From a virus (taxonomy: Duplodnaviria > Heunggongvirae > Uroviricota > Caudoviricetes): a stretch of 39,432 bases of DNA. The stretch is from IMG/VR virus record IMGVR_UViG_2706794693_000007; one strand, given 5' to 3'. The translations under genes and the position numbers were made by a program. Below are positions 1 through 38,680 of this stretch, piece by piece; the first letter of the stretch is position 1, and the number at the start of each line of letters is the position of its first letter. The notes below the pieces were generated by a model. The model searched no databases. It was not told the DNA's origin and saw nothing but the letters and a program-made list of their open reading frames with translations.

Positions 1-14
1 TCGGTTTACGGGAA
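1..14. other. Half of a gix-like recombination site (TCGGTTTACGGGAA), truncated by window start
   Basis: Exact reverse complement of the left half of the site at 1306-1331; matches the GGTTTnCnGGAA-type half-site of Gin/Hin/Cin crossover sites as recalled. Confidence 0.5.
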
Positions 15-353
15 ACGGTAAACAGGGCGGCGAATGCCCTGCCATCGGACGGCACCGCCGTTGCCGCGAACAGGCTGGCAAATGCCCACACAATTAATGG
101 TGTTCCCTTTGACGGGACGCAGGATATCACTATCTCATCAGGAACAGTAACCGCCATAAGACTGGGGTCGGTGACCGCACATATGCCCGGAACATGGGAA
201 AGCTGGGATCTGAATCTGGGGGGCGGCAATGTTCTTACCGGAATTAAAGTACAGGATGTCGGTAAGAATACGGCAGATAACGTCGGCGGCGTGTATTACC
301 GGCCGTTGCAGTATCTGTTAAATGGAGCATGGGTGACGGCTGCAAGTATATAA
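1..353 (+). CDS. Tail fibre alternative variable C-terminal segment (S'v-like), 5'-partial, silent in this orientation
   Basis: Frame open from position 2; first ~40 aa ([26 protein letters not shown]...[12 protein letters not shown]) match the minus-strand fibre after its gix site, then diverge; shared C-terminal RPLQ motif. Confidence 0.6.
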   Translation, partial: GLRETVNRAANALPSDGTAVAANRLANAHTINGVPFDGTQDITISSGTVTAIRLGSVTAHMPGTWESWDLNLGGGNVLTGIKVQDVGKNTADNVGGVYYRPLQYLLNGAWVTAASI

Positions 354-384
354 TGATATTCAGAAGGCCTTCCGGCCTTCTTTA

Positions 385-906
385 TTACTGTGGCTGCTCA
401 GGCCATTTAATGGCGTTAAATTCAGCTTCTGTTTTAATGGCGGGTAGTTCCATTTTCTTCACCTGACTGATGTATGCCATCCATTGGGTAAGTGCTGCTC
501 TGTCTTCATCGCTGATGGTGCCCAGTTGTAGCTCCGTTCTCCAGTCATTAATTTTTTCATATGCCTGATTAAGATATGACTGGCGCATTGCTTCCAGTTT
601 TCTTGCGTAGTTAACCGGAATACGGGAGATTATGCCATTATCAAACTTCCAGTTTCCTGAAATATCCGTGCCTTCAGGGAGTTCATCGACCTCAACCACA
701 GAAAACCCCGCAGGATACAGCGCCGAGGCGTCCTGTGATATTGAGCAGATAACGCCGCTGTCAGGTGTTATGCAAAGTTTATATTTTTTGGTGAATAATG
801 GCAGGGATTCGTAGAAATCCTTACCATCTTCACTCTGGAAATACTGAACATTATTACCATATGGCATATTTTCAGGATAATAACGGGTTATATTTTTTAG
901 TTCCAT
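385..906 (-). CDS. Tail fibre assembly protein (Tfa / Mu U-like chaperone)
   Basis: 173 aa; strong RBS AGGAGG upstream of ATG; lies directly downstream of the minus-strand fibre variable part; C-terminal ...KWPEQPQ resembles Tfa family. Confidence 0.75.
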   Translation of the reverse strand: MELKNITRYYPENMPYGNNVQYFQSEDGKDFYESLPLFTKKYKLCITPDSGVICSISQDASALYPAGFSVVEVDELPEGTDISGNWKFDNGIISRIPVNYARKLEAMRQSYLNQAYEKINDWRTELQLGTISDEDRAALTQWMAYISQVKKMELPAIKTEAEFNAIKWPEQPQ

Positions 907-960
907 AAAATCCTCCTGGAAATAAATCTGTTTTAAAATATATTATTTACTGACTATTTA

Positions 961-1537
961 TAACTGAGATACCGTAATCCATGTACCTCCGACTAATTTT
1001 TGCAGGGGTCTGAATGCTATAAAATCGTTTGAAGCATCAACTTTACTGTCAATCTGCAGGCCTGCCATAACATTACCGTACGCAGAGTAATATGCCCCAC
1101 CGTACATTACCTGCCTGTTCTCTGCTCCCAGCCTGATATCCTGGATATATCGGGAATCCGCATCCTGCTGTGTTATACCAGAAGTGATGTTTATGTCCTG
1201 CGTCCCGTCAAAGGGAACCCCATTAATATTTCTTGGGGTGGCGAGTCTATTCGCGGCAACGGCGGTGCCGTCCGATGGCAGAGCATTCGCCGCCCTGTTT
1301 ACCGTTTCCCGTAAACCGACGTTATCGATAAAAGCCCCTTTATCCGGAATGTCTGCGCCGTTCTGCTCCCTGCGCAGGTAACGGTTATCACCTTCGCTTT
1401 TGCTGTAAACATCCAGATTATTACGGGCGGTTCCCTTATTCTCCAGGTCGGCGAGATTCTGATCCTTCGCCAGGGCATTAACGTCAGCGGGACCAAGACT
1501 GTTTTTTGTGGCAAGCGTCCCCAGACCAAGATAACCA
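961..1537 (-). CDS. Tail fibre protein, 3' portion (end of constant part plus variable Sv part); 5' continues at 6894-7275 if the 71-bp overlap is joined
   Basis: Open frame from 1537 to stop at 961-963; translation ...[35 protein letters not shown]...[17 protein letters not shown]; first 71 nt identical to 6894-6964. Confidence 0.75.
1306..1331. other. gix/hix-like 26-bp crossover site (TTCCCGTAAACCGACGTTATCGATAA) inside the tail-fibre gene
   Basis: Two 12-bp imperfect inverted half-sites around a 2-bp core; lies at the constant/variable junction of the fibre gene. Confidence 0.55.
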
Positions 1538-1750
1538 NNNNNNNNNNNNNNNNNNNNNNNNNNNNNNNNNNNNNNNNNNNNNNNNNNNNNNNNNNNNNNN
1601 NNNNNNNNNNNNNNNNNNNNNNNNNNNNNNNNNNNNNNNNNNNNNNNNNNNNNNNNNNNNNNNNNNNNNNNNNNNNNNNNNNNNNNNNNNNNNNNNNNNN
1701 NNNNNNNNNNNNNNNNNNNNNNNNNNNNNNNNNNNNNNNNNNNNNNNNNN
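1538..1750. other. Run of 213 N (unresolved or masked); hides the 5' end of gin
   Basis: N characters in sequence. Confidence 0.95.
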
Positions 1751-2253
1751 GTGCAGGATGTGAGCTGTTTTTCGAAGACAGAATAAGCGGTAAGACAAGG
1801 GAGCGTCCCGGACTTAAACGCGCATTAAAGCGACTCCGGCCAGGGGATACCCTGCTGGTCTGGAAACTGGATCGCCTTGGACGCAGTATGCAGCACCTTG
1901 TCCTTTTAACAGAAGAACTCCGGCAACGCGGCGTTAACTTCCGCAGCATTACGGACAATATTGATACATCCACTCCCATGGGACGTTTCTTTTTCCATAT
2001 AATGGGCGCGCTGGCGGAAATGGAGCGGGAACTCATTATTGAACGTACACGCGCGGGTCTTGCTGCTGCCCGTGCTCAGGGGCGTCATGGCGGCAGACCT
2101 CAGAAACTGACAGAGAAAGAGCGGGAGCAAATCGCCCGTTTGCTGGCTAATGGCGAGTCCCGTAAACAAATCGCACTGATATTTGATATTGGCCTTTCCA
2201 CCCTTTATCGTTATTTTCCTGCCTCACCAGCTCCGTCACCAAAAGTACCGTGA
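1751..2253 (+). CDS. gin: Serine DNA invertase of the Gin/Hin/Cin/Pin family, N-terminal ~24 codons lost in the N-run
   Basis: Translation AGCELFFEDRISGKTRERPGLKRALKRLRPGDTLLVWKLDRLGRSMQHLV...MGRFFFHIMGALAEMERELIIERT...GGRPQKLT closely matches the Gin/Hin resolvase-type catalytic core and C-terminal HTH. Confidence 0.9.
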
Positions 2254-2338
2254 CGCTTTTTTGAATTTCCGCAAAACACATATTTTTCAGCGGTCGCTAT
2301 TCTGACTCTGTTTAATTCAGAAACAGGCAGAAAAGACG

Positions 2339-4393
2339 ATGTCAGACTCCAAGTGGAAAATGCTCTCCGCCATGCCCGGAGAGTTTTCAGTCAAGGTTGC
2401 CGGTGGCACGGTGGCATTTATTGAAAGCCCTTTCCGCCCTTCGGGTAATAAAGGGGGGATCACCTTCGCAGACTGCGTGATCCGCTTCAGCACGAAAGAG
2501 CCATTATGGGTAATGCCGGTATCCGGTAATCCCAGTGCAGAAATCACCAGTTCAGGCGTGACTGGCATCATTCCAATCACATCTGACGTGGCCGGAACGC
2601 TCACGCCCTCCGACTGGAATGCACCGGATAACGCCGGGCCTTCCGGTAGCACGAATGGCAGCAGTTCAGAGCCGGAATATTACTTTGTTGTCATTCTCGC
2701 GGGTCAGTCAAATGGCATGGCCTACGGCGAGGGGCTGCCGTTACCGGATTCGTTTGACCGCCCGGACCCACGCATTAAGCAACTGGCACGCCGCAGTACG
2801 GTAACGCCCAACGGTACGTCGTGTACATACAACGACATCATTCCGGCAGACCACTGCCTGCATGATGTTCAGGATATGAGCGGGATAAACCACCCGAAAG
2901 CTGATCTGGCAAAAGGCCAGTACGGGACTGTCGGTCAGGGGTTGCATATTGCCAAAAAACTGCTTCCCTATATCCCACAGAATGCCGGGATACTTCTGGT
3001 GCCCTGTTGTCGTGGCGGGTCAGCATTCACCACTGGAGCCGACGGCTCATTCAGTGAGGCCAGCGGTGCTTCCGCTGATTCTTCACGCTGGGGGGCCGGT
3101 AAACCTCTGTATCAGGACCTGGTAAGCCGCACCAAAGTCGCGCTGGCGAAAAACCCGAAAAACAAACTTCTGGCTGTGGTCTGGATGCAGGGAGAGGCAG
3201 ACCTTGCCTCAGGAAGCCAGCAGCATAATAGTTTATTCACGGCCATGGTTCAGCAGTTCAGAACTGACCTGGCTCCGCTTGCTGCGCAGTGCGTGAGTGG
3301 AAATGCCACCACGGTGCCGTGGATTTGCGGTGATACCACGTATTACTGGAAAAACGCTGGCACCGATAAATATGAGGCAGTATACGGTGGCTACAAAGGC
3401 AAGGAAGCACAGAAAATTTTCTTTGTACCGTTCCTGACGGATGAGAATGGACAGAGCACGCCAACGAATGCTCCGGCGGAAGACCCGGATATTGTGGCTG
3501 TCGGGTATTACGGTGCAGCATCCCGAACCCAGGGCAGTTTTGTTTCGACACAGCGTGACAGCCATTTCAGCTCATGGGCACGCAGGGGCGTCATTTCAGA
3601 CCGTCTGGCCTCAGCTATTATGCTCCATGCAGGGCGCACGGCTGAACTGATGCGTGGGCAGACCGTGACACCACCGGATGAGAAGCCGTCACCTGATACA
3701 CCATCAAAACCGTCCACGCCACCCGCAGACACCACGACGATGAGTACGCTATTTGCTTACCGGGCATCTGAGTCTGAAGGACGGTTGACACCACAGGGTT
3801 GGGCTGCCGGAGGTGGCAAGGCTCAAATCGTGGATGATGCCGGAGCCAGCGGGGGTAAGGCAATGAAACTGACCAAGGAAACAGGAAGAGCCCCCTGGTA
3901 CCTTGAGCATGATGCTGGTAATGGTGCGGACCTGCTGGGTAAAGGTGGTCTTGTCAGTTGTCGTTTTAAACTCGATGGCGCGCTTACGGCTAATCAGTAC
4001 GCACTGGCGCTGTACTGGCCGGTTTCTGCCCTGCCGCAAGGGGTTACTCTGGAAGGAAATGCCGGTCATAACCTGCTGGCATCGTTCTACGTACAGAGCG
4101 ATGCCACAGACCTTAACGTGATGTATCACAAAGGAAACACGGCGCAGAACACGAAGCTGGGGTCATTCGGCGCATTTAATAACGAATGGCATACGCTGGG
4201 CTTCCGTTTTGCCGGTAACAACAGTATTGAGGTGACGCCGGTCATTGATGGTAAGGACGGGACACCATTCATGCTGTCGCAGTCTCCGGTCGGCACGTTT
4301 ACGGCAGACAAGTTGCGCGTGACCGATATCACTAAAAATGCGACTTACCCGGTACTGATTGACAGTATCGTGGTGGAAGTGAATAACGCGTAA
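2339..4393 (+). CDS. SASA-family (sialate O-acetylesterase-like, NanS-p-like) SGNH hydrolase with N-terminal domain, Pro/Thr-rich linker and C-terminal lectin-like domain
   Basis: 684 aa; motifs YYFVVILAGQSNGMAYGEG (GQSN block) and AVVWMQGEADL (WxQGE(S/A)D block); candidate Asp/His at RDSHFS; linker TPPDEKPSPDTPSKPSTPPADTTT; start codon uncertain (weak RBS). Confidence 0.6.
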   Translation: MSDSKWKMLSAMPGEFSVKVAGGTVAFIESPFRPSGNKGGITFADCVIRFSTKEPLWVMPVSGNPSAEITSSGVTGIIPITSDVAGTLTPSDWNAPDNAGPSGSTNGSSSEPEYYFVVILAGQSNGMAYGEGLPLPDSFDRPDPRIKQLARRSTVTPNGTSCTYNDIIPADHCLHDVQDMSGINHPKADLAKGQYGTVGQGLHIAKKLLPYIPQNAGILLVPCCRGGSAFTTGADGSFSEASGASADSSRWGAGKPLYQDLVSRTKVALAKNPKNKLLAVVWMQGEADLASGSQQHNSLFTAMVQQFRTDLAPLAAQCVSGNATTVPWICGDTTYYWKNAGTDKYEAVYGGYKGKEAQKIFFVPFLTDENGQSTPTNAPAEDPDIVAVGYYGAASRTQGSFVSTQRDSHFSSWARRGVISDRLASAIMLHAGRTAELMRGQTVTPPDEKPSPDTPSKPSTPPADTTTMSTLFAYRASESEGRLTPQGWAAGGGKAQIVDDAGASGGKAMKLTKETGRAPWYLEHDAGNGADLLGKGGLVSCRFKLDGALTANQYALALYWPVSALPQGVTLEGNAGHNLLASFYVQSDATDLNVMYHKGNTAQNTKLGSFGAFNNEWHTLGFRFAGNNSIEVTPVIDGKDGTPFMLSQSPVGTFTADKLRVTDITKNATYPVLIDSIVVEVNNA

Positions 4394-4400
4394 GCAGGAT

Positions 4401-4442
4401 AAAAAAATGCCGCCGGTAAGGGAAAACAAGAAACCGGCGGCA
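4401..4442 (-). terminator. Candidate intrinsic terminator, oriented for the minus strand
   Basis: 9-bp GC-rich stem GCCGCCGGT/ACCGGCGGC with 15-nt loop; run of 7 T follows on the minus strand, only an A-rich tract on the plus strand. Confidence 0.4.
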
Positions 4443-4537
4443 AAAAGATCGTTATATCCAAAGCAAAAAATGCAGTGCACCTTTTTACCTAACAGATATT
4501 ACCGGTGTCAACACCATGTCAATAATTGGGAGGGATA

Positions 4538-4720
4538 ATGACATTTTTACAGCTTATTTTATTGTATTTCTGCACGGCAGTATGTGCGTTATATCTGGTG
4601 AGTGGTGGTTATAAGGCCATCAGAAATTATGTTCGCCGCAAAATTGAGGACGCAGCAGCTGAAAAACTCAGTAAAACAGCGCAGGTAACTCCGCTCCCAA
4701 AAGACCCGACCCAGCCCTGA
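4538..4720 (+). CDS. Small membrane protein (60 aa, one N-terminal TM helix, charged C-terminus), function unknown
   Basis: RBS GGGAGGG 3 nt before ATG at 4538; MTFLQLILLYFCTAVCALYLVSGGYKAIRNY... hydrophobic N-terminus. Confidence 0.5.
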   Translation: MTFLQLILLYFCTAVCALYLVSGGYKAIRNYVRRKIEDAAAEKLSKTAQVTPLPKDPTQP

Positions 4721-4755
4721 TTGCAGGGCTTTATTCCCGCATAAGGAGGATATAC

Positions 4756-5010
4756 ATGCCAGAAATTAAAGGCACCGTCACTGAAGACCTGGTAAAACAG
4801 GCACTGTATTCCGGTGAAGTAAATAAGTTGCTGAAAGCGCAGGTCCGCAAGGATTTTGAGGCACAAATCGACACTTACGTTGATGAAGTGCTGGCAAAAC
4901 TTATTGGGCCAGCAGTTGCGGCCAGTGATGCTGATAATGAGCCGAAAACCGACGCGCAGCCAGAGCAACCAGACCCGGCTCAGCCCGGAACTGACAGTAC
5001 CATGATGTAA
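4756..5010 (+). CDS. Hypothetical 84-aa acidic protein
   Basis: Strong RBS TAAGGAGG 7 nt before ATG; coding-like composition; hairpins downstream. Confidence 0.6.
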   Translation: MPEIKGTVTEDLVKQALYSGEVNKLLKAQVRKDFEAQIDTYVDEVLAKLIGPAVAASDADNEPKTDAQPEQPDPAQPGTDSTMM

Positions 5011-5177
5011 CAATACAAACCGGTGGTGTCCTCTGCCGGTTTGACACTAATGAAAACATCTTTGCCGCTATCCAGCCATATGTAATCGCTGGATAGTATT
5101 TCGTATTCAGAAATATAGCTGCTTATGGAGCAGTCAATCCTGCTTCCCCATCCGGGCAGGCAAATGAACCGGTATCA

Positions 5178-5471
5178 TTAGTCCGATTCACGCTTTTGTA
5201 GAATCGTTCCCAGAATGCTATACAGCTCATTAGCCTGTTGCTCCATCATTGAGACGGAGGCTATACGGTGCAAAGTGATTTCAGGAGGTGGCACACCTCC
5301 ATCTTCTTGCTGTGGAGGAAAAACATAAGATTTAATAAAAAAGTTGAAGCATATGAACTCTCCCGCACTCGAACTGTATTTGCAGGCATCTGAATAATCG
5401 GAAAAATAATCATTATAGATTTCCGCATTTTCAATCATTTTTCGATTTCTCGTCGTTACATGATTGTCCAT
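5178..5471 (-). CDS. Hypothetical 97-aa protein, convergent with the 84-aa gene
   Basis: RBS AAGAGG before ATG at 5471; AT-rich ORF with no recognisable motif. Confidence 0.5.
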   Translation of the reverse strand: MDNHVTTRNRKMIENAEIYNDYFSDYSDACKYSSSAGEFICFNFFIKSYVFPPQQEDGGVPPPEITLHRIASVSMMEQQANELYSILGTILQKRESD

Positions 5472-5594
5472 AGCAGCCTCTTACGCTGGCAATTAACCAA
5501 TTGACTTCTATAAATTAGTTGATTTGTTTGCTTTGCGGTATTCAAATGTACAATCATTCAGCACTTATGCGTTACAGCACCGTTTAAAATTAGT

Positions 5595-5680
5595 GATCAA
5601 ACTCATAAATTTTCGCTAATGACATTTCGTGTTATTTGTTGTATCAATTAAATAAATCAAATCGATCGTTTTTGTCGATC
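5595..5680. promoter_or_regulatory. Upstream regulatory region of com-mom with three GATC (Dam) sites
   Basis: GATC at 5595-5598, 5664-5667, 5677-5680, the last two inside near-direct repeats TCGATCG; Mu mom is known to be controlled through upstream Dam sites. Confidence 0.4.
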
Positions 5681-5727
5681 GATTGAGTGATAAAGATATC
5701 AACAACAAAGCAGGAGGTTATGCGGCC

Positions 5728-5928
5728 ATGTATCGAAACATACGGTGCCGACATTGTAACAAGCTACTGGCACGAGCCAGCTTCAGTTATCTGGAAGTTA
5801 AATGTCCGCGCTGTAAAACCCTCAATCAAATCACATCTCAGAGCGCCACAGAGCACCCCACATACACAAGGAAATCCTGTCGTGGGGAACAGAAAGCAAG
5901 TTACATCCCGTATCATCAGCACGCCTGA
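5728..5928 (+). CDS. com: Com-like zinc-finger translational activator of mom
   Basis: 66 aa; AGGAGG RBS 10 nt upstream; [14 protein letters not shown]...[10 protein letters not shown] with CxxC...CxxC; immediately precedes and overlaps mom as in Mu. Confidence 0.75.
5856..5887 (+). promoter_or_regulatory. Stem-loop sequestering the putative mom start codon (candidate Com target)
   Basis: CCCCAC (5856-5861) pairs with GTGGGG (5882-5887); the 20-nt loop contains AAGGA; GTG at 5882 is in the mom frame. Confidence 0.45.
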
Positions 5929-6619
5929 ACTTATTCACTATAACGACAATATCGTCGGTTATGGCTCCCGTGAGTTACGGGTTGAGACAATAAGTTGCTG
6001 GCTGGCCCGGCTGGTCGTCGTCAATAAACATTACAGCCATCGTTTCGTAAATAATTCCTACCTTCATCTGGGCATATTTTCAGAACGGGAGCTGGTTGGC
6101 GTAATGCAATGGGGTTATGCCCTTAATCCAAACAATGGTGCACGCGTCGTAACTGGCACGCAGAACCGCGAATATATGGAGCTTAACCGGTTATGGCTGC
6201 ATGACTGTATGCCGAGAAACTCCGAATCAAGGGCAATCAGTTACGCGCTCAAACTAATCAGACAACTTTATCCGCAGGTGCAGTGGGTTCAGTCGTTTGC
6301 AGATGAGCGTTGTGGCTGTCTTGGTGTCGTGTACCAGGCAAGCAATTTTGATTATGTAGGCAGTCATGAAACAACATTCTATGAACTTGATGGCGAGTGG
6401 TATCACGAGATTTGCAAGAATGCAATCAAACGAGGAGGACAGCGAGGTGAACATCTGCGGGCTAATATCGACAGAGCCAGTGTTCATAAATTCCGTCAGT
6501 TTCGTTACATCCGGTTTCTGGACAAGAGAGCCAGAAAACGCCTTAACACAAAGCTATTCAAAGTCCAGCCTTACCCAAAACCACAAACAGTTAAAACTGG
6601 TTTGAAAGAGAGTGAATGA
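5882..6619 (+). CDS. mom: Mom-like DNA adenine modification protein; start assigned to GTG 5882, uncertain
   Basis: Long ORF in the frame overlapping the 3' end of com; com-mom architecture, size about 245 aa; no ATG between com and residue ~130 so a non-ATG start is required. Confidence 0.65.
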
Positions 6620-6664
6620 ACGCTTAAAAACTCATTCTAAAACTCAAAAGAAAAGCGCCGATTT

Positions 6665-6681
6665 AGTATCAAATAAGTTGC
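6665..6681 (+). repeat. Prophage end-like repeat (GTATCAAATAAGTTGCG) just downstream of mom
   Basis: 17-nt near-match to GTATCAAATGAGTTGCC at 38755-38771 and to repeats at 38817 and 38902; preceded by GCCGATTT as at 38767. Confidence 0.45.
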
Positions 6682-6691
6682 GTATCGGCGT

Positions 6692-6893: not shown

Positions 6894-7275
6894 TCGCCAG
6901 GGCATTAACGTCAGCGGGACCAAGACTGTTTTTTGTGGCAAGCGTCCCCAGACCAAGATAACCACGGGCCAGACGCTGGGCCTCCGCACCGGCATCAGCA
7001 ATTTCTTTCAGGTTATTTTTCCGGGAAAAGGCATTCGCAGCGATAATGGCTTTAATGGACAGCGTAAGCTGGTTTAACTGCGCCTTATCCGGCTGAATAC
7101 TGGCTTCAGCCAGAATATTCAGCAGTTCGGCCTGGAGAATATTCAGCCAGTCCTGACCAATCCAGCTGATACCTTTTTGTCCGTCACCTTCGGTAAACCA
7201 GGTGGTGGTATTACTCTGCGCCGGTGCCAGCGCAGGCATATTCGCCACGCCGGAATTATTATCAACATGAAACAT
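6894..7275 (-). CDS. Tail fibre protein, N-terminal constant part (Sc), 3' end runs into N-run
   Basis: ATG at 7275 overlapping upstream stop; MFHVDNNSGVANMPALAPAQ...[24 protein letters not shown]; last 71 nt identical to 1467-1537. Confidence 0.75.
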
Positions 7276-7835: not shown

Positions 7836-8908
7836 GTGATTTCTCCTACCGTCAGCAGCTCACTGTCTCCCGCCTGAACTGACGTCAGCGGACTGCGCAC
7901 TTCAAAATCCTCCAGATTTTTCACCCCTGCCACCGCCCGCCAGAAAGACGACGGCAGAACCAGACCGCCGGGCCGGGATTCGTTATACAACAGGTCGGTC
8001 AGCGCCTGTTTTACGGCCGCCTGATTCTCCGGTGTTTTCGGGATGATCCTGATGCTGAAGGGCACCGGCTTATTGGTCAGTTTAAACACGGTCACCGTCG
8101 GCCCCAGAGGCTGTCCGACAGGCTGGCCGGTCGCCGGATCATCATGACTGCGGATATAATCCGCCACCCGCTGAACATCACCGTCACCGGGGAAAATATC
8201 CGGGTTATTATCCTGAACAAACGTTACCCCCACGCTGCCCGCCTGCGGCCATTCCGGGCGGCACCATGCCCGCGTCACGCCCGGCACTTCACGCGCCCAG
8301 CGTTCAAAATCATACTGCGTGCCGCCGGACGGTGGATTCTGCACCCGGAAAACCAGACGGGAAAGCAGCTCCGGCACGGTTTCCACATCCGCACCACCGG
8401 TGATCCCCGTTCCGGTCACCGTGGCCGTCTGGTTGATCCCCGCCTGCGGTGTGATAAATGTCAGTTTTGTCCCTGCCGGGGCATTCCCCGCACGACCGGC
8501 ACTTTCGGCTTCCACACTGACATTCAGCGTACCGGCCTTACCGGTCAGGGAGGTGGTGATACGGTAAACCACGCCATCACTTCGCTGGAGAAGCACACCT
8601 TCCTTGATCCCCGCATCCGTGGTCAGCATCAGCTGAACCGGCCCGTCCCCCCGAGAGGCAGGCTTACGCATGACGCCCCAGAATGCACAGTGTTTCAGCA
8701 GTTCGGCTTCATCGGCTTCGGTCGGGATGATCTGACGCGCAATCCAGGCCAGATGCTCATGCTCCTGAGCAGATAACCCTGCCTGAGCGTAAGCAATGGC
8801 ATTCAGGGTGGTTTCATTCACACCCGGCTGCGAGCCGGGCAGGCGCTGGCTGATATCCTGCTGTGTCTGCGTGATTAACTGTGCCAGCGGTAAAGGCTGA
8901 TAAGGCAT
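7826..8908 (-). CDS. Baseplate J-like protein (Mu gp47-like)
   Basis: 360 aa, synteny in baseplate cluster. Confidence 0.75.
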   Translation of the reverse strand: MPYQPLPLAQLITQTQQDISQRLPGSQPGVNETTLNAIAYAQAGLSAQEHEHLAWIARQIIPTEADEAELLKHCAFWGVMRKPASRGDGPVQLMLTTDAGIKEGVLLQRSDGVVYRITTSLTGKAGTLNVSVEAESAGRAGNAPAGTKLTFITPQAGINQTATVTGTGITGGADVETVPELLSRLVFRVQNPPSGGTQYDFERWAREVPGVTRAWCRPEWPQAGSVGVTFVQDNNPDIFPGDGDVQRVADYIRSHDDPATGQPVGQPLGPTVTVFKLTNKPVPFSIRIIPKTPENQAAVKQALTDLLYNESRPGGLVLPSSFWRAVAGVKNLEDFEVRSPLTSVQAGDSELLTVGEITWL

Positions 8909-21349: not shown

Positions 21350-21470
21350 ATTGCCTCCGCATAAAGGATGAATATAAAATAAACAGGCGGTCAGTGTACG
21401 CTTAACTGGTAAAGTCGGTGCCTGCCTCCGGGTGGATCATGTATGCGGGTTCGACCCCCGCCACTGACCG

Positions 21471-28931: not shown

Positions 28932-29354
28932 TCAGAAAAGCCGTGGCTGCGTGCGTTCCTGATGCAGGCGACGCTGGTTGCGGATAACGGAGTAAATCTG
29001 CGTCTCTGACATCTGGTAGTGGCGGCGCAGGGTTTCAATTTTTTCGCCCTGGCTCCAGCGGGAAAAAATTTCATTATTGCGCAGTTCGGTGAAAAGGGAT
29101 TCACCGACCGGGAGATAATAACCACGCCCGCCCATGTACCCGGCCTGTGCGGCTGCAACCTTACGGGCAAGCATTCCCGCCTGAGCAGGTTCAATCCCCT
29201 GACGGTGCAGTTCAGCACTGATCACATCAACCAGGTCCCGCAGCGTGCCGGGCCAGTTCTTTTTCAGCTCATCATCAGGAATATCATCCAGACGGTCAAT
29301 CAGCGCGTGCAGCTGTTCGCTGTCACCAAACATGCTCATCTGTGTTTCAGCCAT
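28932..29354 (-). CDS. Mor/C-family transcriptional activator of middle/late genes
   Basis: 140 aa; C-terminal HTH FSRWSQGEKIETLRRHYQMSETQIYSVIR; located between GemA-like gene and lysis genes. Confidence 0.75.
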   Translation of the reverse strand: MAETQMSMFGDSEQLHALIDRLDDIPDDELKKNWPGTLRDLVDVISAELHRQGIEPAQAGMLARKVAAAQAGYMGGRGYYLPVGESLFTELRNNEIFSRWSQGEKIETLRRHYQMSETQIYSVIRNQRRLHQERTQPRLF

Positions 29355-29424
29355 ACCCGCCTCCGGTCATCATTACACAGGGCAAGTTTAAAATAAAAAT
29401 CCCGCGCTGTGGCGGGATTTGGGG

Positions 29425-29937
29425 TTAACGGGGGAATGATTTTTCATACAGCCTGCAAACACGCTCATAACTCATCACTGCACGTTCCGACATATCCAGG
29501 GCTGCCAGCATTTTGCGGCGGTGCCAGCGTTTGAGACGCTCCAGCACATCAGAGGCCAGCGCGGGTTGTTGCTCCAGCCACTGCCAGTTAGCCACACCTT
29601 CGCCGTCGTTCTGCGCGGCCGTCTGCGATTTCACCCAGCGGTTAAGGGCCGTTTCCCCGCCATCAGAGATAAATCCCTGCCGGTGCATCACTTTCCAGAT
29701 GGCGCGAATTTTGGCGGTCACCGTACCCGGTTTTAAGGCCCGGTTAACCGGCTTCTGACGCACTTTAAAACCGCGTTTTTTGAAAACATCCAGCACGCGG
29801 GATAACTCACCGGGTGACATATCACGGCAACTGGATTTGCCGGTGGCTGCCAGCAGCGCGGATGTATAGGTATCATGGTCAAGCTGTAGATCGCGTTTTG
29901 CGACATGTATTAAGGTAATCAGGGAAGCGCGATTCAT
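29425..29937 (-). CDS. GemA-like protein (Mu gp16 family)
   Basis: 170 aa; N-terminal LITLIHVAKRDLQLDHDTYTSALLAATGK resembles the GemA signature; precedes Mor as in Mu. Confidence 0.65.
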   Translation of the reverse strand: MNRASLITLIHVAKRDLQLDHDTYTSALLAATGKSSCRDMSPGELSRVLDVFKKRGFKVRQKPVNRALKPGTVTAKIRAIWKVMHRQGFISDGGETALNRWVKSQTAAQNDGEGVANWQWLEQQPALASDVLERLKRWHRRKMLAALDMSERAVMSYERVCRLYEKSFPR

Positions 29938-29950
29938 TATCGTGGCTCCA

Positions 29951-29980
29951 TAAAAAATGGGCGGTGTTACCGCACCGCCA
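29951..29980 (-). terminator. Candidate intrinsic terminator on the minus strand upstream of GemA
   Basis: 7-bp stem GGCGGTG/CACCGCC with 6-nt loop, followed on the minus strand by TTTTTT. Confidence 0.4.
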
Positions 29981-30007
29981 TGTCAATTAACATAAAAGGA
30001 AAAATCT

Positions 30008-30247
30008 ATGTCAGATATAAAAAATGCACTTGATGTTGCCGCATTCACAATGGCTGGAAATCTTATGGTAACCCTGTTCGATAAGGGGCTGATTTCCCGT
30101 GAGGAGGCAATACATATTATCAATCTCGCTCAAAAAAACTCTACCCCGGAAAATGCAGAAGATATCCAGGATGGCTCATATATTAATACCGACTGGCATT
30201 TCGACAATCTCCGGGCCTGTATGGGGATTACCGCTGAAAAAGATTAA
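30008..30247 (+). CDS. Hypothetical 79-aa protein encoded antisense to the early operon
   Basis: RBS AAAGGA before ATG; convergent with and overlapping by 20 nt the 3' end of the minus-strand gene 30228-30524. Confidence 0.5.
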   Translation: MSDIKNALDVAAFTMAGNLMVTLFDKGLISREEAIHIINLAQKNSTPENAEDIQDGSYINTDWHFDNLRACMGITAEKD

Positions 30248-30524
30248 AAATTTTTGCATAATGTTCAGATGTAAGAATTGCTGAACCATCAACACCGAGC
30301 CTACGGCGAACGTATTCCTCGCGGGCTATTTTATTATCCAGAGATACAGCATCCTTAATCAGGTTAATCTCCCGCTCCATTATCAAAAGGGCTTCTCTGG
30401 CTGCAAGATTTTCTTTTATCGCATATTCGATAATGTCCCGCATACGTTCAAGCATGCCGATTTTAGCCAGTTCTTCGTCGATAGATTTAGGCGCAAATTT
30501 GATTTCTTTTTCCATATTATTCAT
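30228..30524 (-). CDS. Hypothetical 98-aa helical protein; start moved to ATG 30524
   Basis: GAGG RBS, start overlaps stop of upstream small zinc-ribbon ORF; AT-rich. Confidence 0.55.
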   Translation of the reverse strand: MNNMEKEIKFAPKSIDEELAKIGMLERMRDIIEYAIKENLAAREALLIMEREINLIKDAVSLDNKIAREEYVRRRLGVDGSAILTSEHYAKIFNLFQR

Positions 30525-30660
30525 CCTCACAATTTATACATGCAGTGTCGTCGCCCATATCGCAGTGGTTACATTTTATCTCACCACAATGTGGGCACTC
30601 TTTCAGATACTCCGGGTCCTCATTTCCACAGGTGGGACATTCAACAATTTGCTCATCCAT
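30517..30660 (-). CDS. Small zinc-ribbon protein (47 aa, four CxxC pairs), absent from the ORF track
   Basis: MDEQIVECPTCGNEDPEYLKECPHCGEIKCNHCDMGDDTACINCEDE; ATG overlaps upstream stop and its stop overlaps the downstream start (translational coupling). Confidence 0.5.
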   Translation of the reverse strand: MDEQIVECPTCGNEDPEYLKECPHCGEIKCNHCDMGDDTACINCEDE

Positions 30661-32730: not shown

Positions 32731-33261
32731 TTATTTATTCAGTCCGGCGTCCTGTTCAAAAGGCTCGACATAAAAACTTTCAGCGCCTTTATTCACCTTG
32801 ATACCGGCAATGCCTTTCACAGCATCCGGCTCCGCCAGGACGGCTTCCTTGTTCACTTCCTCTTTCGTGCGGATGAAACGCTCAAGCCCCATACGGCGCA
32901 GCATTTCAATCACACCTTCCACATCACGGCTGACGCTGCATGATGGCGTTCCCAGCCGCCATGACACCGTTCCGGTGGTCAGATTGGCTGTTTTGGTTTT
33001 GCCGCCGTTCGTCAGCTCATCACGGTTGGTTTTGCACCAGTCCTGAATCCCTTTAAAAAGCACTTTGATTTGCTTTTTAAGATTTTCAATCTGCGGCGTA
33101 TAACGGGCGGTGATTTCTGCCACTTCGTCATTCATCGCCGTTTCCAGGCGCAGCGCCTCTCGCTGAATATCTCCCAGGGTGCGGATATCACGGCTGACTT
33201 CTTCCCGGGTCTGCGGTGCCGCCTCGGCTGCGGCCTTTAATTTTGTAACGCGTTTAGCCAT
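32731..33261 (-). CDS. gam: Gam-like host-nuclease inhibitor (Ku-like DNA end-binding protein)
   Basis: 176 aa; sequence and size typical of Mu Gam; position in early region. Confidence 0.75.
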   Translation of the reverse strand: MAKRVTKLKAAAEAAPQTREEVSRDIRTLGDIQREALRLETAMNDEVAEITARYTPQIENLKKQIKVLFKGIQDWCKTNRDELTNGGKTKTANLTTGTVSWRLGTPSCSVSRDVEGVIEMLRRMGLERFIRTKEEVNKEAVLAEPDAVKGIAGIKVNKGAESFYVEPFEQDAGLNK

Positions 33262-38079: not shown

Positions 38080-38134
38080 TGGTTGCTGACAACACTAAAA
38101 GTTAATAATTTCAAATTGATAGGAAGAAAAGAAA

Positions 38135-38680
38135 ATGAACAAGCAAACAACAACATCTCTTTCTTTTCCTGGTGGTAGAAAAGAAAGCATTGCTGAGCGT
38201 CTGAAAAGGCTGATTGGCTCCCGCAGCGTCAGAGCTGCAGCAAGAGATTGGGGGCTTTCATTTTCAACACTAAACAATTATCTGTCTCGTGGCACTGAGC
38301 CATCCTTAAGTGTCGCCCTTCAGATTGCGTCTATCGAAGGAGTAAGTGTTGAGTGGCTATGTGGATTCAGTGATGCATCACAAGTGAATCGGTGTGAGAT
38401 CAAGGAAAATCAAGATGAAAGCAAGAAGATAATTATGACGATTATCAGCGCACTTGATGAAAAAGACTTAGAGCAGCTATCGAAAAATTTGGTTCTGAAT
38501 GGAGCCAAGTACTTAGCTCGGTTGTTAGAGCCTGAAAATCAAGATCTAATCCGCTTAGAAGGAAGGAAAAGAATAGCTGCATTACAGCTTGAAGGTATGT
38601 CTGACGAACGCGTCAGAGAGATTTTGGAAGAAACTGAGAGAAGTCGCAAATCTAACGCGGTAGAACCAAAAGCGGGTTAA
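38135..38680 (+). CDS. Putative prophage repressor (c-like), HTH N-terminus and coiled-coil C-terminus
   Basis: 181 aa, divergent from ner as in Mu; sequence not recognisably Mu c itself. Confidence 0.6.
   Translation: MNKQTTTSLSFPGGRKESIAERLKRLIGSRSVRAAARDWGLSFSTLNNYLSRGTEPSLSVALQIASIEGVSVEWLCGFSDASQVNRCEIKENQDESKKIIMTIISALDEKDLEQLSKNLVLNGAKYLARLLEPENQDLIRLEGRKRIAALQLEGMSDERVREILEETERSRKSNAVEPKAG

Follow-up and report, generated by a model that had tools for sequence, protein, structure and literature searches.

The window, meaning the whole 39,432-nucleotide stretch of DNA analysed here, is a Mu-like prophage. At the junction of its Pe-driven "semi-essential" early genes and the gem operon (gemA-mor), it carries a copy of the Mu early module gp13-gp14-gp15 together with two predicted RNA hairpins. 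The junction is composed of the following features.

29425 to 29937, minus strand: GemA (gp16), the first gene past the gemA-proximal hairpin, followed by mor; Pfam GemA, E 1.8e-28
29950 to 29979, minus strand: GC hairpin with T6, stem-loop at 29960-29979 and tail CATTTTTTAT at plus-strand 29950-29959, 10 nt before the gemA Shine-Dalgarno sequence
29997 to 30000, plus strand: Shine-Dalgarno AGGA, 7 nt 5' of the gp15-like ATG
30008 to 30247, plus strand: gp15-like gene, ATG start, 79 aa, RefSeq WP_001280088.1, phrog_32893, antisense to the early operon
30132 to 30138, plus strand: A7 run inside the gp15-like ORF
30228 to 30515, minus strand: gp14-like gene, 95 aa, phrog_6075, homologue of Mu gp14/E15 and convergent partner of the gp15-like gene
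30298 to 30337, plus strand: predicted intrinsic terminator of the gp15-like transcript, hairpin 30298-30327 plus ATTTTATTAT at 30328-30337, inside the gp14 coding sequence
30517 to 30660, minus strand: gp13-like zinc-ribbon ORF, 47 aa, left part of the variable module; phrog_5584, E 3e-26

The gp15-like gene is the sole plus-strand gene of the early region, as it is in RefSeq for a prophage 99.4% identical to this one. Apart from it, that annotation has just one plus-strand CDS near the early region, a repressor-like gene (38134-38679). The reading frame, its own ribosome-binding site, and a 20-nt 3' overlap with the minus-strand neighbour, which ends at 30228, are all present as the preliminary description reported. 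The protein matches phrog_32893 with an E-value of 1.3e-45. A search of 1.84 billion proteins returned homologues in 9 divergent cluster representatives (37-49% identity), and the overall identity range of homologues is 30-49%. Mu gp15 (Mup15, NP_050619.1, NC_000929.1 complement 7896..8162) and the D108 type cross-match phrog_32893 at 6e-4 to 5e-7, and their profile-profile alignment with the gp15-like protein has an hhalign probability of 98.3% (E 1.4e-14). Conservation in relatives, on which the preliminary description had let its proposal depend, was found: homologues exist, and all the divergent loci examined have the gene in convergent orientation to a gp14 homologue.

Many long plus-strand ORFs lie inside minus-strand genes in the window, and terminator-like sites number 4 against 4.0 expected from shuffles. 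Occurrence alone is thus not distinguishing, and the ORF and hairpin rise above chance because they are conserved across divergent relatives. The pN/pS of the gp15 frame is 0.18-0.29, the minimum among the six frames, and this frame beats every phage-strand frame in all 45 cross-locus pair comparisons. AGG(A) is found 5-8 nt 5' of the start codon in 11/11 divergent homologous loci. On this sequence evidence, the plus-strand ORF is a real gene that encodes a conserved protein homologous to Mu gp15. Frameshifted variants (P0005, P0008, P0009, and P0010) begin at the A7 run or at neighbouring runs and enter the +1 frame after residues 43-54. Sigma-70 scans for a gp15 promoter, using a built-in model and a PWM across 12 loci, gave weak, inconsistently placed candidates only. 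A search of the literature on gp15, Pgem, and Mu transcriptomes found no expression data for Mu gp15 or for this prophage.

The convergent minus-strand gene was originally described as 98 aa long with a start at 30524. The gene is present, and its likely start is the ATG at 30515, giving 95 aa. GAGGA lies 8 nt upstream of 30515, whereas it abuts 30524, and the first position of the PHROG profile is the Met at 30515. Near-identical prophages in RefSeq have the gene called as 30228-30515, and the start of Mu gp14 is likewise one base past the gp13 stop. The protein matches phrog_6075 (E 6e-44), the PHROG that also contains Mu gp14. Matches by tblastn were found in Mu, D108, SfMu, and Yersinia Mu-like phages (47-57% identity, E about 1e-21), with 49% identity and an E-value of 5e-21 for Mu. 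The partner of every gp15-like ORF examined aligns to the gp14 family. The gp14 profile had no match in a contig set with one genome per species.

The gp13-like ORF is translationally coupled to gp14 via TAAtATG. Its CxxC...CxxC...CxxC...CxxC pattern matches the Mu gp13 C-terminus, and it has no RefSeq annotation. On the other side of the module, the Mor protein encoded after GemA is identified by Pfam (E 6.7e-31). The gem operon has been reported to be active even in lysogens (PMC3820752).

The two overlapping genes encode small acidic helical proteins that probably act together. The AF2 model of the gp15-like protein has a pLDDT of 80 and four helices; that of the gp14-like protein is helical with a pLDDT of 87. 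Neither protein matches Pfam, NCBIfam, or PADLOC, and comparison of both predicted structures with known folds gave generic helical results with no informative match. The maximum 19-residue hydropathy is 1.27 and 0.78 for the two proteins, so neither is a hydrophobic peptide. A marginal hit to an Hsp70 lid (PDB sequence profile, E 0.03) was judged compositional. Rfam returned nothing relevant.

The gp15-like gene has its own predicted intrinsic terminator, built into the codons of gp14, which is a new finding here. A hairpin with a T-run is found at the codon-homologous place in 13/14 loci. Its stem cells are paired in 90.7% of cases, compared with 31-47% on slid control positions. Four pairs are changed on both sides, and this covariation score is reached by 0/500 shuffles. 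The compensatory changes alter gp14 residues, with R to H accompanied by R to C in the D108 type and R to C accompanied by E to N in L010. At this embedded terminator, the need to keep an RNA structure has clearly outweighed amino-acid conservation in the overlapping gene. TransTermHP terminator 7839..7873 of AF083977.1, the updated Mu GenBank record, is the same element. On the phage strand, no T-run follows the 30298-30327 hairpin. In the window's copy, a single A x C mismatch makes the hairpin less stable (-10.8 kcal/mol vs -16.8 kcal/mol in L003). A simple terminator scan of the window missed the 30298-30337 site.

The same slot is occupied in Mu, D108-like, Klebsiella, and metagenomic Mu-like phages, with gp15 convergent with gp14 and usually just upstream of gemA. 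The gp15-like gene is present in 22 of the 23 IMG/VR loci with gp14 and was never seen without gp14 in the loci examined. Among about 232 complete E. coli genomes with this prophage backbone, 14 contain the module, and both genes are present in all 14 E. coli genomes having most of it. Mu and the D108-like phage Mu_3F6 have flanks that are 96.6% and 98.7% identical, with no DNA similarity between a point 25 nt into gp14 and the hairpin. In L143, a viral contig, codon 6 of gp14 is fused to codon 5 of gp15, and L042 has a similarly clean loss of the pair. In L010, the replaced segment corresponds to window positions 30004-30267 only. At least four allelic types of gp15 exist (phrog_32893, phrog_8747, phrog_38610, and the L034 type), and the convergent overlap with gp14 ranges from 4 to 98 nt across loci. 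The module has a G+C content of 40-42% vs 52-58% in the flanks; the corresponding values for Mu are 46% and 54%. The genes gp14 and gp15 stay together whether they are passed on, swapped, or deleted, and the frameshifted gp15 variants and the clean losses in L143 and L042 indicate that the pair is dispensable. Strain 102651 has in this slot an unrelated DUF2513 gene, also antisense and accompanied by a hairpin of its own.

The gemA-proximal hairpin (29960-29979) has a 7-bp stem with 6 GC pairs, a 6-nt loop, and a CAUUUUUUAU tail, with a predicted energy of -13.3 kcal/mol. A minus-strand terminator hairpin near 29951-29980 had been proposed as the boundary of the plus-strand gene. A terminator-like hairpin is indeed present, but its role as that boundary was not upheld. 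It is not the terminator of the gp15-like gene because it belongs to the opposite strand, is located 5' of the gene directly before the gemA Shine-Dalgarno sequence, and persists in the natural gp14-gp15 deletion L143. Every locus with this junction has a hairpin at the corresponding position. Pairing is 100% in each of the six distinct versions, and at 2 pairs both partners have changed. The pattern GGCGGTG-N6-CACCGCC is not Mu-specific, as 110 of 122 IMG/VR sites are unrelated. TransTermHP made no call of this hairpin in Mu. The interval 29950-29979 is described as a conserved predicted terminator or attenuator, or else as part of the gem promoter region.

The module is probably, with somewhat better than even confidence, a conserved antisense unit, transcribed autonomously, where the early operon meets the gem operon. 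A separate gem unit is consistent with the "semi-early promoter" that the Mu GenBank record marks in this intergenic region. The mutually antisense arrangement suggested in the preliminary description stands as a convergent overlap of two conserved genes, from which we infer the regulatory antagonism. Since the genes are convergent and overlapping, their transcripts would be mutually antisense. Roughly 360 bp between the opposed terminators (about 29980-30335) would be transcribed on both strands, so that early transcription would run antisense across the whole of gp15. Transcription of gp15 would in turn cover the final ~36 codons of gp14 in antisense. Polymerase collision and RNase III-sensitive duplex RNA could make these two transcription events mutually antagonistic, and gp15 would be made mainly while Pe is quiet. 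The gemA-proximal hairpin may attenuate Pe read-through into gemA-mor, in which case the junction would be one reason why the Mor activator is expressed with a delay ("semi-early"). Against this role, lytic development could not proceed past a strong terminator in front of gemA-mor that was neither leaky nor bypassed.

A further proposal, and a rather doubtful one, is that the pair, together with its two opposed terminators, makes up a sense-antisense switch that is both conserved and exchangeable. In it, the antisense protein gene would gate the amount of early transcription reaching Mor, and the allelic diversity would reflect a specificity or conflict function of the two proteins. If this were true, AF083977.1 would have replaced gp15 by a spurious gene, Mu_54, and put the gp15 terminator on the wrong strand.

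Other readings of the same features were weighed. The gemA-proximal hairpin may not be a terminator but a promoter or operator part of the gem ("semi-early") unit, or a 5' stabilising stem-loop of the gemA-mor mRNA, with gp15 merely adjacent; this is a tentative possibility and the least improbable of the alternatives. The semi-early promoter of the Mu record (8151..8217) spans the hairpin, which persists without gp15 and has poor T-runs in Mu, L008, and L004. Weak -35/-10 candidates on the phage strand recur, ending 5-7 nt before the hairpin, and would place the transcription start site at its first bases; with a start at the hairpin base, the structure could be a 5' stabiliser or promoter element. 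These candidates are low-scoring and inconsistent, however, and the window has a canonical T6 tail. The stem GGCGGTG/CACCGCC is conserved beyond pairing needs in 6 loci, whereas the stems of L008, L004, and L020 differ in sequence at the same place and keep their pairing, which favours structure over sequence recognition. It is very improbable that the plus-strand ORF itself is spurious and that the real gene is a small same-strand ORF, Mu_54, or the stretch merely a 3' UTR. The updated Mu record omits gp15 and calls Mu_54 on the early strand, and long antisense ORFs are common in the window. Nevertheless, Mu_54 has no PHROG match, and no same-strand ORF with an ATG start exists in this part of the window. 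Protein-level conservation is confined to the antisense frame, where pN/pS is at its minimum, the Shine-Dalgarno sequence and start are conserved, and a predicted terminator lies downstream on the gp15 strand. Judged from these signals, AF083977.1 appears to mis-annotate gp15.

The inserted moron named in the preliminary description is borne out in its low G+C content, patchy presence, and own predicted terminator. It is not borne out as a recent foreign insertion; the gene is ancestral rather than newly acquired, because it occupies the same position in Mu and in distant Mu-like phages. A moron-type accessory cassette is possible but somewhat unlikely. Here gp15, with or without gp14, would be a lysogeny-expressed conflict gene (superinfection exclusion, anti-defence, or host fitness) in a swappable slot upstream of gemA, and the antisense layout would serve only to uncouple gp15 from the repressed early operon. 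This is consistent with a self-contained unit that is polymorphic in presence and allelic type, with recombination breakpoints close to the gene (L010), and with the DUF2513 gene of strain 102651. A precedent is a Pseudomonas Mu-like phage whose exclusion genes overlap on opposite strands (PMC9936078). However, gp15 is always coupled to gp14, an early-operon gene, and has no PADLOC, Pfam, or NCBIfam match; promoter scans gave no consistent candidate. Nor is gp15 an independent insertion between backbone genes, its predicted terminator being inside gp14. The cassette and the favoured antisense unit are not mutually exclusive. The toxin/antidote-like module, also raised at the outset, was not supported and is distinctly unlikely. 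In such an addiction pair, one of gp14 and gp15 would be harmful and the other would neutralise it, with the convergent overlap providing mutual antisense control. Strict co-inheritance with joint exchange and loss would fit, as would the overlap, which leaves no room for a terminator between the genes. On the other hand, neither protein matches toxin, antitoxin, or defence models, and both are acidic helical proteins with generic predicted folds rather than hydrophobic peptides. Moreover, gp15 alone is frameshifted in several isolates without evident gp14 loss. Type II toxin-antitoxin pairs are co-directional operons, and type I systems consist of a peptide and a non-coding RNA; two conserved convergent protein genes are not a canonical layout.

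Although Mu serves as a reference phage, little of its "semi-essential" early region has been assigned a function. In this analysis, gp14 and gp15 emerge as a two-gene unit, replaced and lost jointly, at the very boundary that precedes the regulators GemA and Mor. The analysis also yields a testable hypothesis, namely tuning of read-through into mor or else a lysogeny-expressed accessory function. The reality and wide conservation of gp15 and of its predicted terminator within gp14 argue for correcting the Mu GenBank annotation. As an annotated phage module the locus is already known, and the finding is largely ordinary for a genome scan.

The closest known system is the gp14/gp15-gemA-mor region of Mu. 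The order and orientation of gp13, gp14, antisense gp15, GC hairpin, gemA, and mor are shared, as are homologous gp14 and gp15, the convergent 3' overlap, the embedded terminator, and the gemA-proximal hairpin. The window differs in having a gp15 of 79 aa with a C-terminal WH(F/L)DNL (phrog_32893), compared with 88 aa in Mu (phrog_8747), and in an overlap of 20 nt rather than 62 nt. The window gp13 is shortened to 47 aa, its hairpin has a better T-run, and its E. coli Mu-like backbone has a lysozyme gene directly after mor.

Lambdoid morons, e.g., lambda bor and lom and the HK97-type promoter-gene-terminator units, are autonomous small transcription units. The gp15 unit resembles them in being small, with its own predicted terminator, lower G+C content, and variable presence among related prophages. 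Unlike them, gp15 is coupled to an early-operon partner that carries its terminator and is ancestral in the Mu family, with no independent insertion.

Convergent antisense control in temperate phages is known from lambda OOP RNA, which acts against cII, and P22 sar, which acts against ant. The analogy is that the short transcript, predicted in the case of gp15, stops at an intrinsic terminator that lies within the 3' end of the convergent gene or just beyond it, and that complementary 3' ends are expected to pair. The gp15 antisense transcript differs in that it would encode a conserved protein.

The Pseudomonas Mu-like phage Fc02 has opposite-strand overlapping genes, olg1 and gene 10, with demonstrated exclusion activity (PMC9936078). 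That pair is located beside repressor/ner rather than gemA and has no evident sequence relationship to gp14-gp15. Both pairs are opposite-strand overlapping protein genes in the early region of a transposable phage, and in Fc02 one strand is lysogenic and the other lytic (PMC9936078).

The window is a Mu-like prophage whose genes lie on the minus strand. For an E. coli prophage of strain HH35 that is 99.4% identical, RefSeq annotates a full Mu-type map, from repressor and transposase through tail genes. The Pfam matches in the window and the two hairpins at the gp14-gp15 locus are as follows:

32731-33261, minus strand: Gam, among the minus-strand prophage genes (Pfam)
gp11-like protein (Pfam match in the window)
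30298-30327, plus strand: gp15 terminator hairpin, 51 nt beyond the gp15 stop, then ATTTTATTAT at 30328-30337
29960-29979, minus strand: GC-rich hairpin, then CATTTTTTAT
29425-29937, minus strand: GemA (Pfam)
28932-29354, minus strand: Mor (Pfam)

Relative to the HH35 prophage (L022 356-6762), ~6.4 kb at the right end of the window (1-6691) is inverted. This segment carries tail-fibre parts, a recombinase-family gene, a DUF6645 gene, and a Com-family gene, has a ~345-bp repeat (1193-1537) at its edge, and probably represents the opposite orientation of a Gin-type invertible segment. In the HH35 prophage, RefSeq places a plus-strand 'tRNA-OTHER' amid the head genes (L022 21390-21469; window about 21384-21463), and ARAGORN finds no tRNA or tmRNA across the entire window. 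A second terminator-like hairpin (29397-29420, minus strand; AAATCCCGC...GCGGGATTT plus a T-run) separates gemA and mor. Exactly at this site (L005 681-801, 1492-2010), strain STEC2018-607 carries an inserted 690-bp cassette of two convergent genes (140 aa on the plus strand, 78 aa on the minus strand), bordered by duplicated copies of window 29390-29420.

The preliminary description reported 30008-30247 as the sole plus-strand gene inside the early region, and ORF calls (79 aa) and RefSeq annotation agree. Its own ribosome-binding site (AGGA, 7 nt before the ATG), its 20-nt overlap with the 3' end of the minus-strand gene, and the minus-strand hairpin are likewise present. The convergent gene, described as 98 aa at 30228-30524, is real, but its start is not: the likeliest is the ATG at 30515, giving 95 aa. 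GAGGA lies 8 nt upstream, and the PHROG profile and RefSeq both begin the gp14-like gene there. This ATG is one base past the stop of a 47-aa zinc-ribbon ORF (30517-30660), the same arrangement as in Mu gp13/gp14. With these elements found at the locus, the earlier observation is therefore confirmed and one start codon corrected.

The zinc-ribbon ORF (minus strand, four CxxC) is homologous to the C-terminal portion of Mu gp13 (phrog_5584, E 3e-26) and is absent from the RefSeq annotation of near-identical prophages. The overlap of its stop with the gp14 start context (TAAtATG) suggests translational coupling.

By tblastn, the 95-aa protein is homologous to gp14 of Mu (formerly E15), its identity being 47-57% to Mu, D108, SfMu, and Yersinia Mu-like phages. 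In Mu NC_000929.1, gp14 is followed by gp15, an 88-aa opposite-strand ORF that overlaps the gp14 end just before gemA. The 79-aa protein matches phrog_32893 at 1.3e-45, and Mu gp15 (phrog_8747) and the D108-type protein (phrog_38610) cross-match this family. Profile-profile comparison of the 79-aa family with Mu gp15 / D108-type gives 98.3% probability (E 1.4e-14). The protein belongs to the Mu gp15 superfamily. HMMER, run exhaustively over 1.84 billion cluster representatives, returned only nine relatives (37-87% identity). Conservation in relatives, whose absence the preliminary description would have counted against it, is seen in every contig inspected: the ORF runs antisense to neighbouring phage genes and converges on a gp14 homologue. 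E. coli, Shigella, Klebsiella, and other Enterobacteriaceae are the hosts. A search begun from gp14 recovered a gp15-superfamily antisense ORF in 22 of 23 IMG/VR loci. The gemA start is about 70 nt away in most inspected loci. The exceptions are L020, where a DUF2786 protein gene adjoins the ORF and gemA is two genes further, and L019, with no GemA called and a different hairpin. Confidence in the identity and architecture of the module is very high. The pair belongs to a known, annotated Mu module and is no novel insertion.

Public Mu records are at odds over gp15 (AF083977.1 7839..8217, L011 1340-1718). RefSeq NC_000929.1 retains it on the minus strand, whereas the current GenBank record AF083977.1 lacks it, annotates a same-strand 55-aa ORF (Mu_54) instead, and lists the hairpin within gp14 as a plus-strand terminator. 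No PHROG matches Mu_54, and the window has no same-strand ATG-initiated ORF in the gp15 stretch. That the plus-strand ORF is spurious is hardly credible. Close alleles give a pN/pS of 0.18-0.29 in the gp15 frame, against 0.49-1.5 in the other five frames where defined. In 45/45 pairs from ten divergent loci, the gp15 frame has a higher BLOSUM local score than any of nine phage-strand frame combinations, and AGG(A) is kept 5-8 nt before the start codon in 11/11 loci. This comparative evidence supports gp15 and a predicted minus-strand terminator in Mu, over the AF083977.1 annotation.

When the 79-aa protein is clustered at 90% identity, four of ten clusters have a frameshift after residues 43-54. 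These lie at an A7 run (window 30132-30138) or neighbouring homopolymers, and all enter one alternative frame, giving 88-92-aa products; sequencing error, decay, or phase variation may account for them. Compared with the allele at L021 1109-1211, window 30008-30110 has 1 difference in the first ~100 nt, versus 26/137 positions in the remainder of the gene. This suggests a recombination breakpoint within the gene or extra nucleotide-level constraint at its 5' end.

The gp15 terminator is embedded in gp14. Hairpin and T-run occupy a codon-homologous gp14 position in 13/14 divergent loci (-14 to -22 kcal/mol). In a gap-free, codon-registered alignment, 90.7% of cells are paired, versus 31-47% with the partner slid. 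Four pairs show both-side changes, and the covariation score was reached by 0/500 shuffles. Some compensatory changes alter gp14 residues (R to H with R to C in the D108 type; R to C with E to N in L010), and pairing is therefore kept at a cost to protein sequence. Conserved N-K codons of gp14, read in reverse, supply the T-run; no T-run follows this hairpin on the phage strand. The element coincides with a 'terminator predicted by TransTermHP' (7839..7873 in AF083977.1), a site on the minus strand of Mu that begins 23 nt downstream of where gp15 stops. A simple terminator scan missed 30298-30337 because one A x C mismatch weakens the window stem to -10.8 kcal/mol, against -16.8 kcal/mol for strain 2015C-3121. 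Sigma-70 scans found no gp15 promoter, giving only weak candidates at inconsistent places. With the downstream hairpin and T-run on its strand, gp15 is thus probably a self-contained reverse transcription unit.

In every locus with the gp15/gemA junction, the GC-rich hairpin precedes the gemA SD by 6-12 nt. Its six distinct versions are 100% paired, with two both-side changes (T-A to C-G, G-C to U-G). It goes with gemA rather than with gp15. A natural clean deletion in L143, an IMG/VR contig found via the hairpin pattern (7111-7212), fuses gp14 codon 6 to gp15 codon 5 and retains gp13, hairpin, and gemA intact. The hairpin may terminate or attenuate Pe transcripts, stabilise the gem mRNA 5' end, or both. 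Its tail is T-rich on the early strand only; the window, L016, L018, and L020 have a strong one, and Mu, L008, and L004 a weak one. AF083977.1 labels the gp15/gemA intergenic stretch 'semi-early promoter', and a weak recurrent phage-strand -35/-10 candidate has its predicted transcription start at the hairpin base. For this component, a promoter or stabiliser element in place of a terminator is somewhat unlikely.

The gp14 and gp15 genes behave as a unit. Between Mu and the D108-like Mu_3F6, the flanks are 96.6% and 98.7% identical, versus no DNA similarity between 25 nt into gp14 and the hairpin. Across the group of E. coli prophages, the segment that varies extends from about 29911/29957 to about 30646/30669, and in L010 a Mu-type allele replaces gp15 alone (30004-30267). 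The backbone occurs in about 232 of 5426 complete E. coli genomes; only 14 of these carry most of the module, each with both genes. G+C is 40-42% in the module versus 52-58% in the flanks.

In strain 102651 (L004 2038-2783), the slot upstream of gemA retains the architecture with its content swapped. An unrelated convergent pair fills it, an antisense DUF2513 protein (136 aa, phrog_585) and a 102-aa gene (phrog_1988) with a 39-nt overlap, and a different GC hairpin lies ahead of the gemA SD. Other relatives lack an antisense gene altogether.

About 360 bp (29980-30335) are bracketed by two opposed terminator-type elements. The two genes overlap in every locus (4-98 nt), and there is therefore no room for a terminator between them. 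Early transcription would cross gp15 in antisense, gp15 transcription would cross the gp14 3' end, and this two-way crossing would lead to mutual interference. A repressed Pe would favour gp15, and read-through into gemA-mor would be attenuated. This regulatory reading is possible and is put forward tentatively. An accessory or conflict cassette expressed in lysogeny is less likely still, and a toxin-antidote pair is improbable; these alternatives partly overlap with the regulatory reading. Searches of the literature turned up no expression data for gp15.

The finding is real, and the pair is a new member of a known, annotated Mu module. Three things are added to that module: evidence that Mu gp15, missing from the current GenBank record, is a genuine gene; the terminator inside gp14; and the way gp14 and gp15 behave as a unit.
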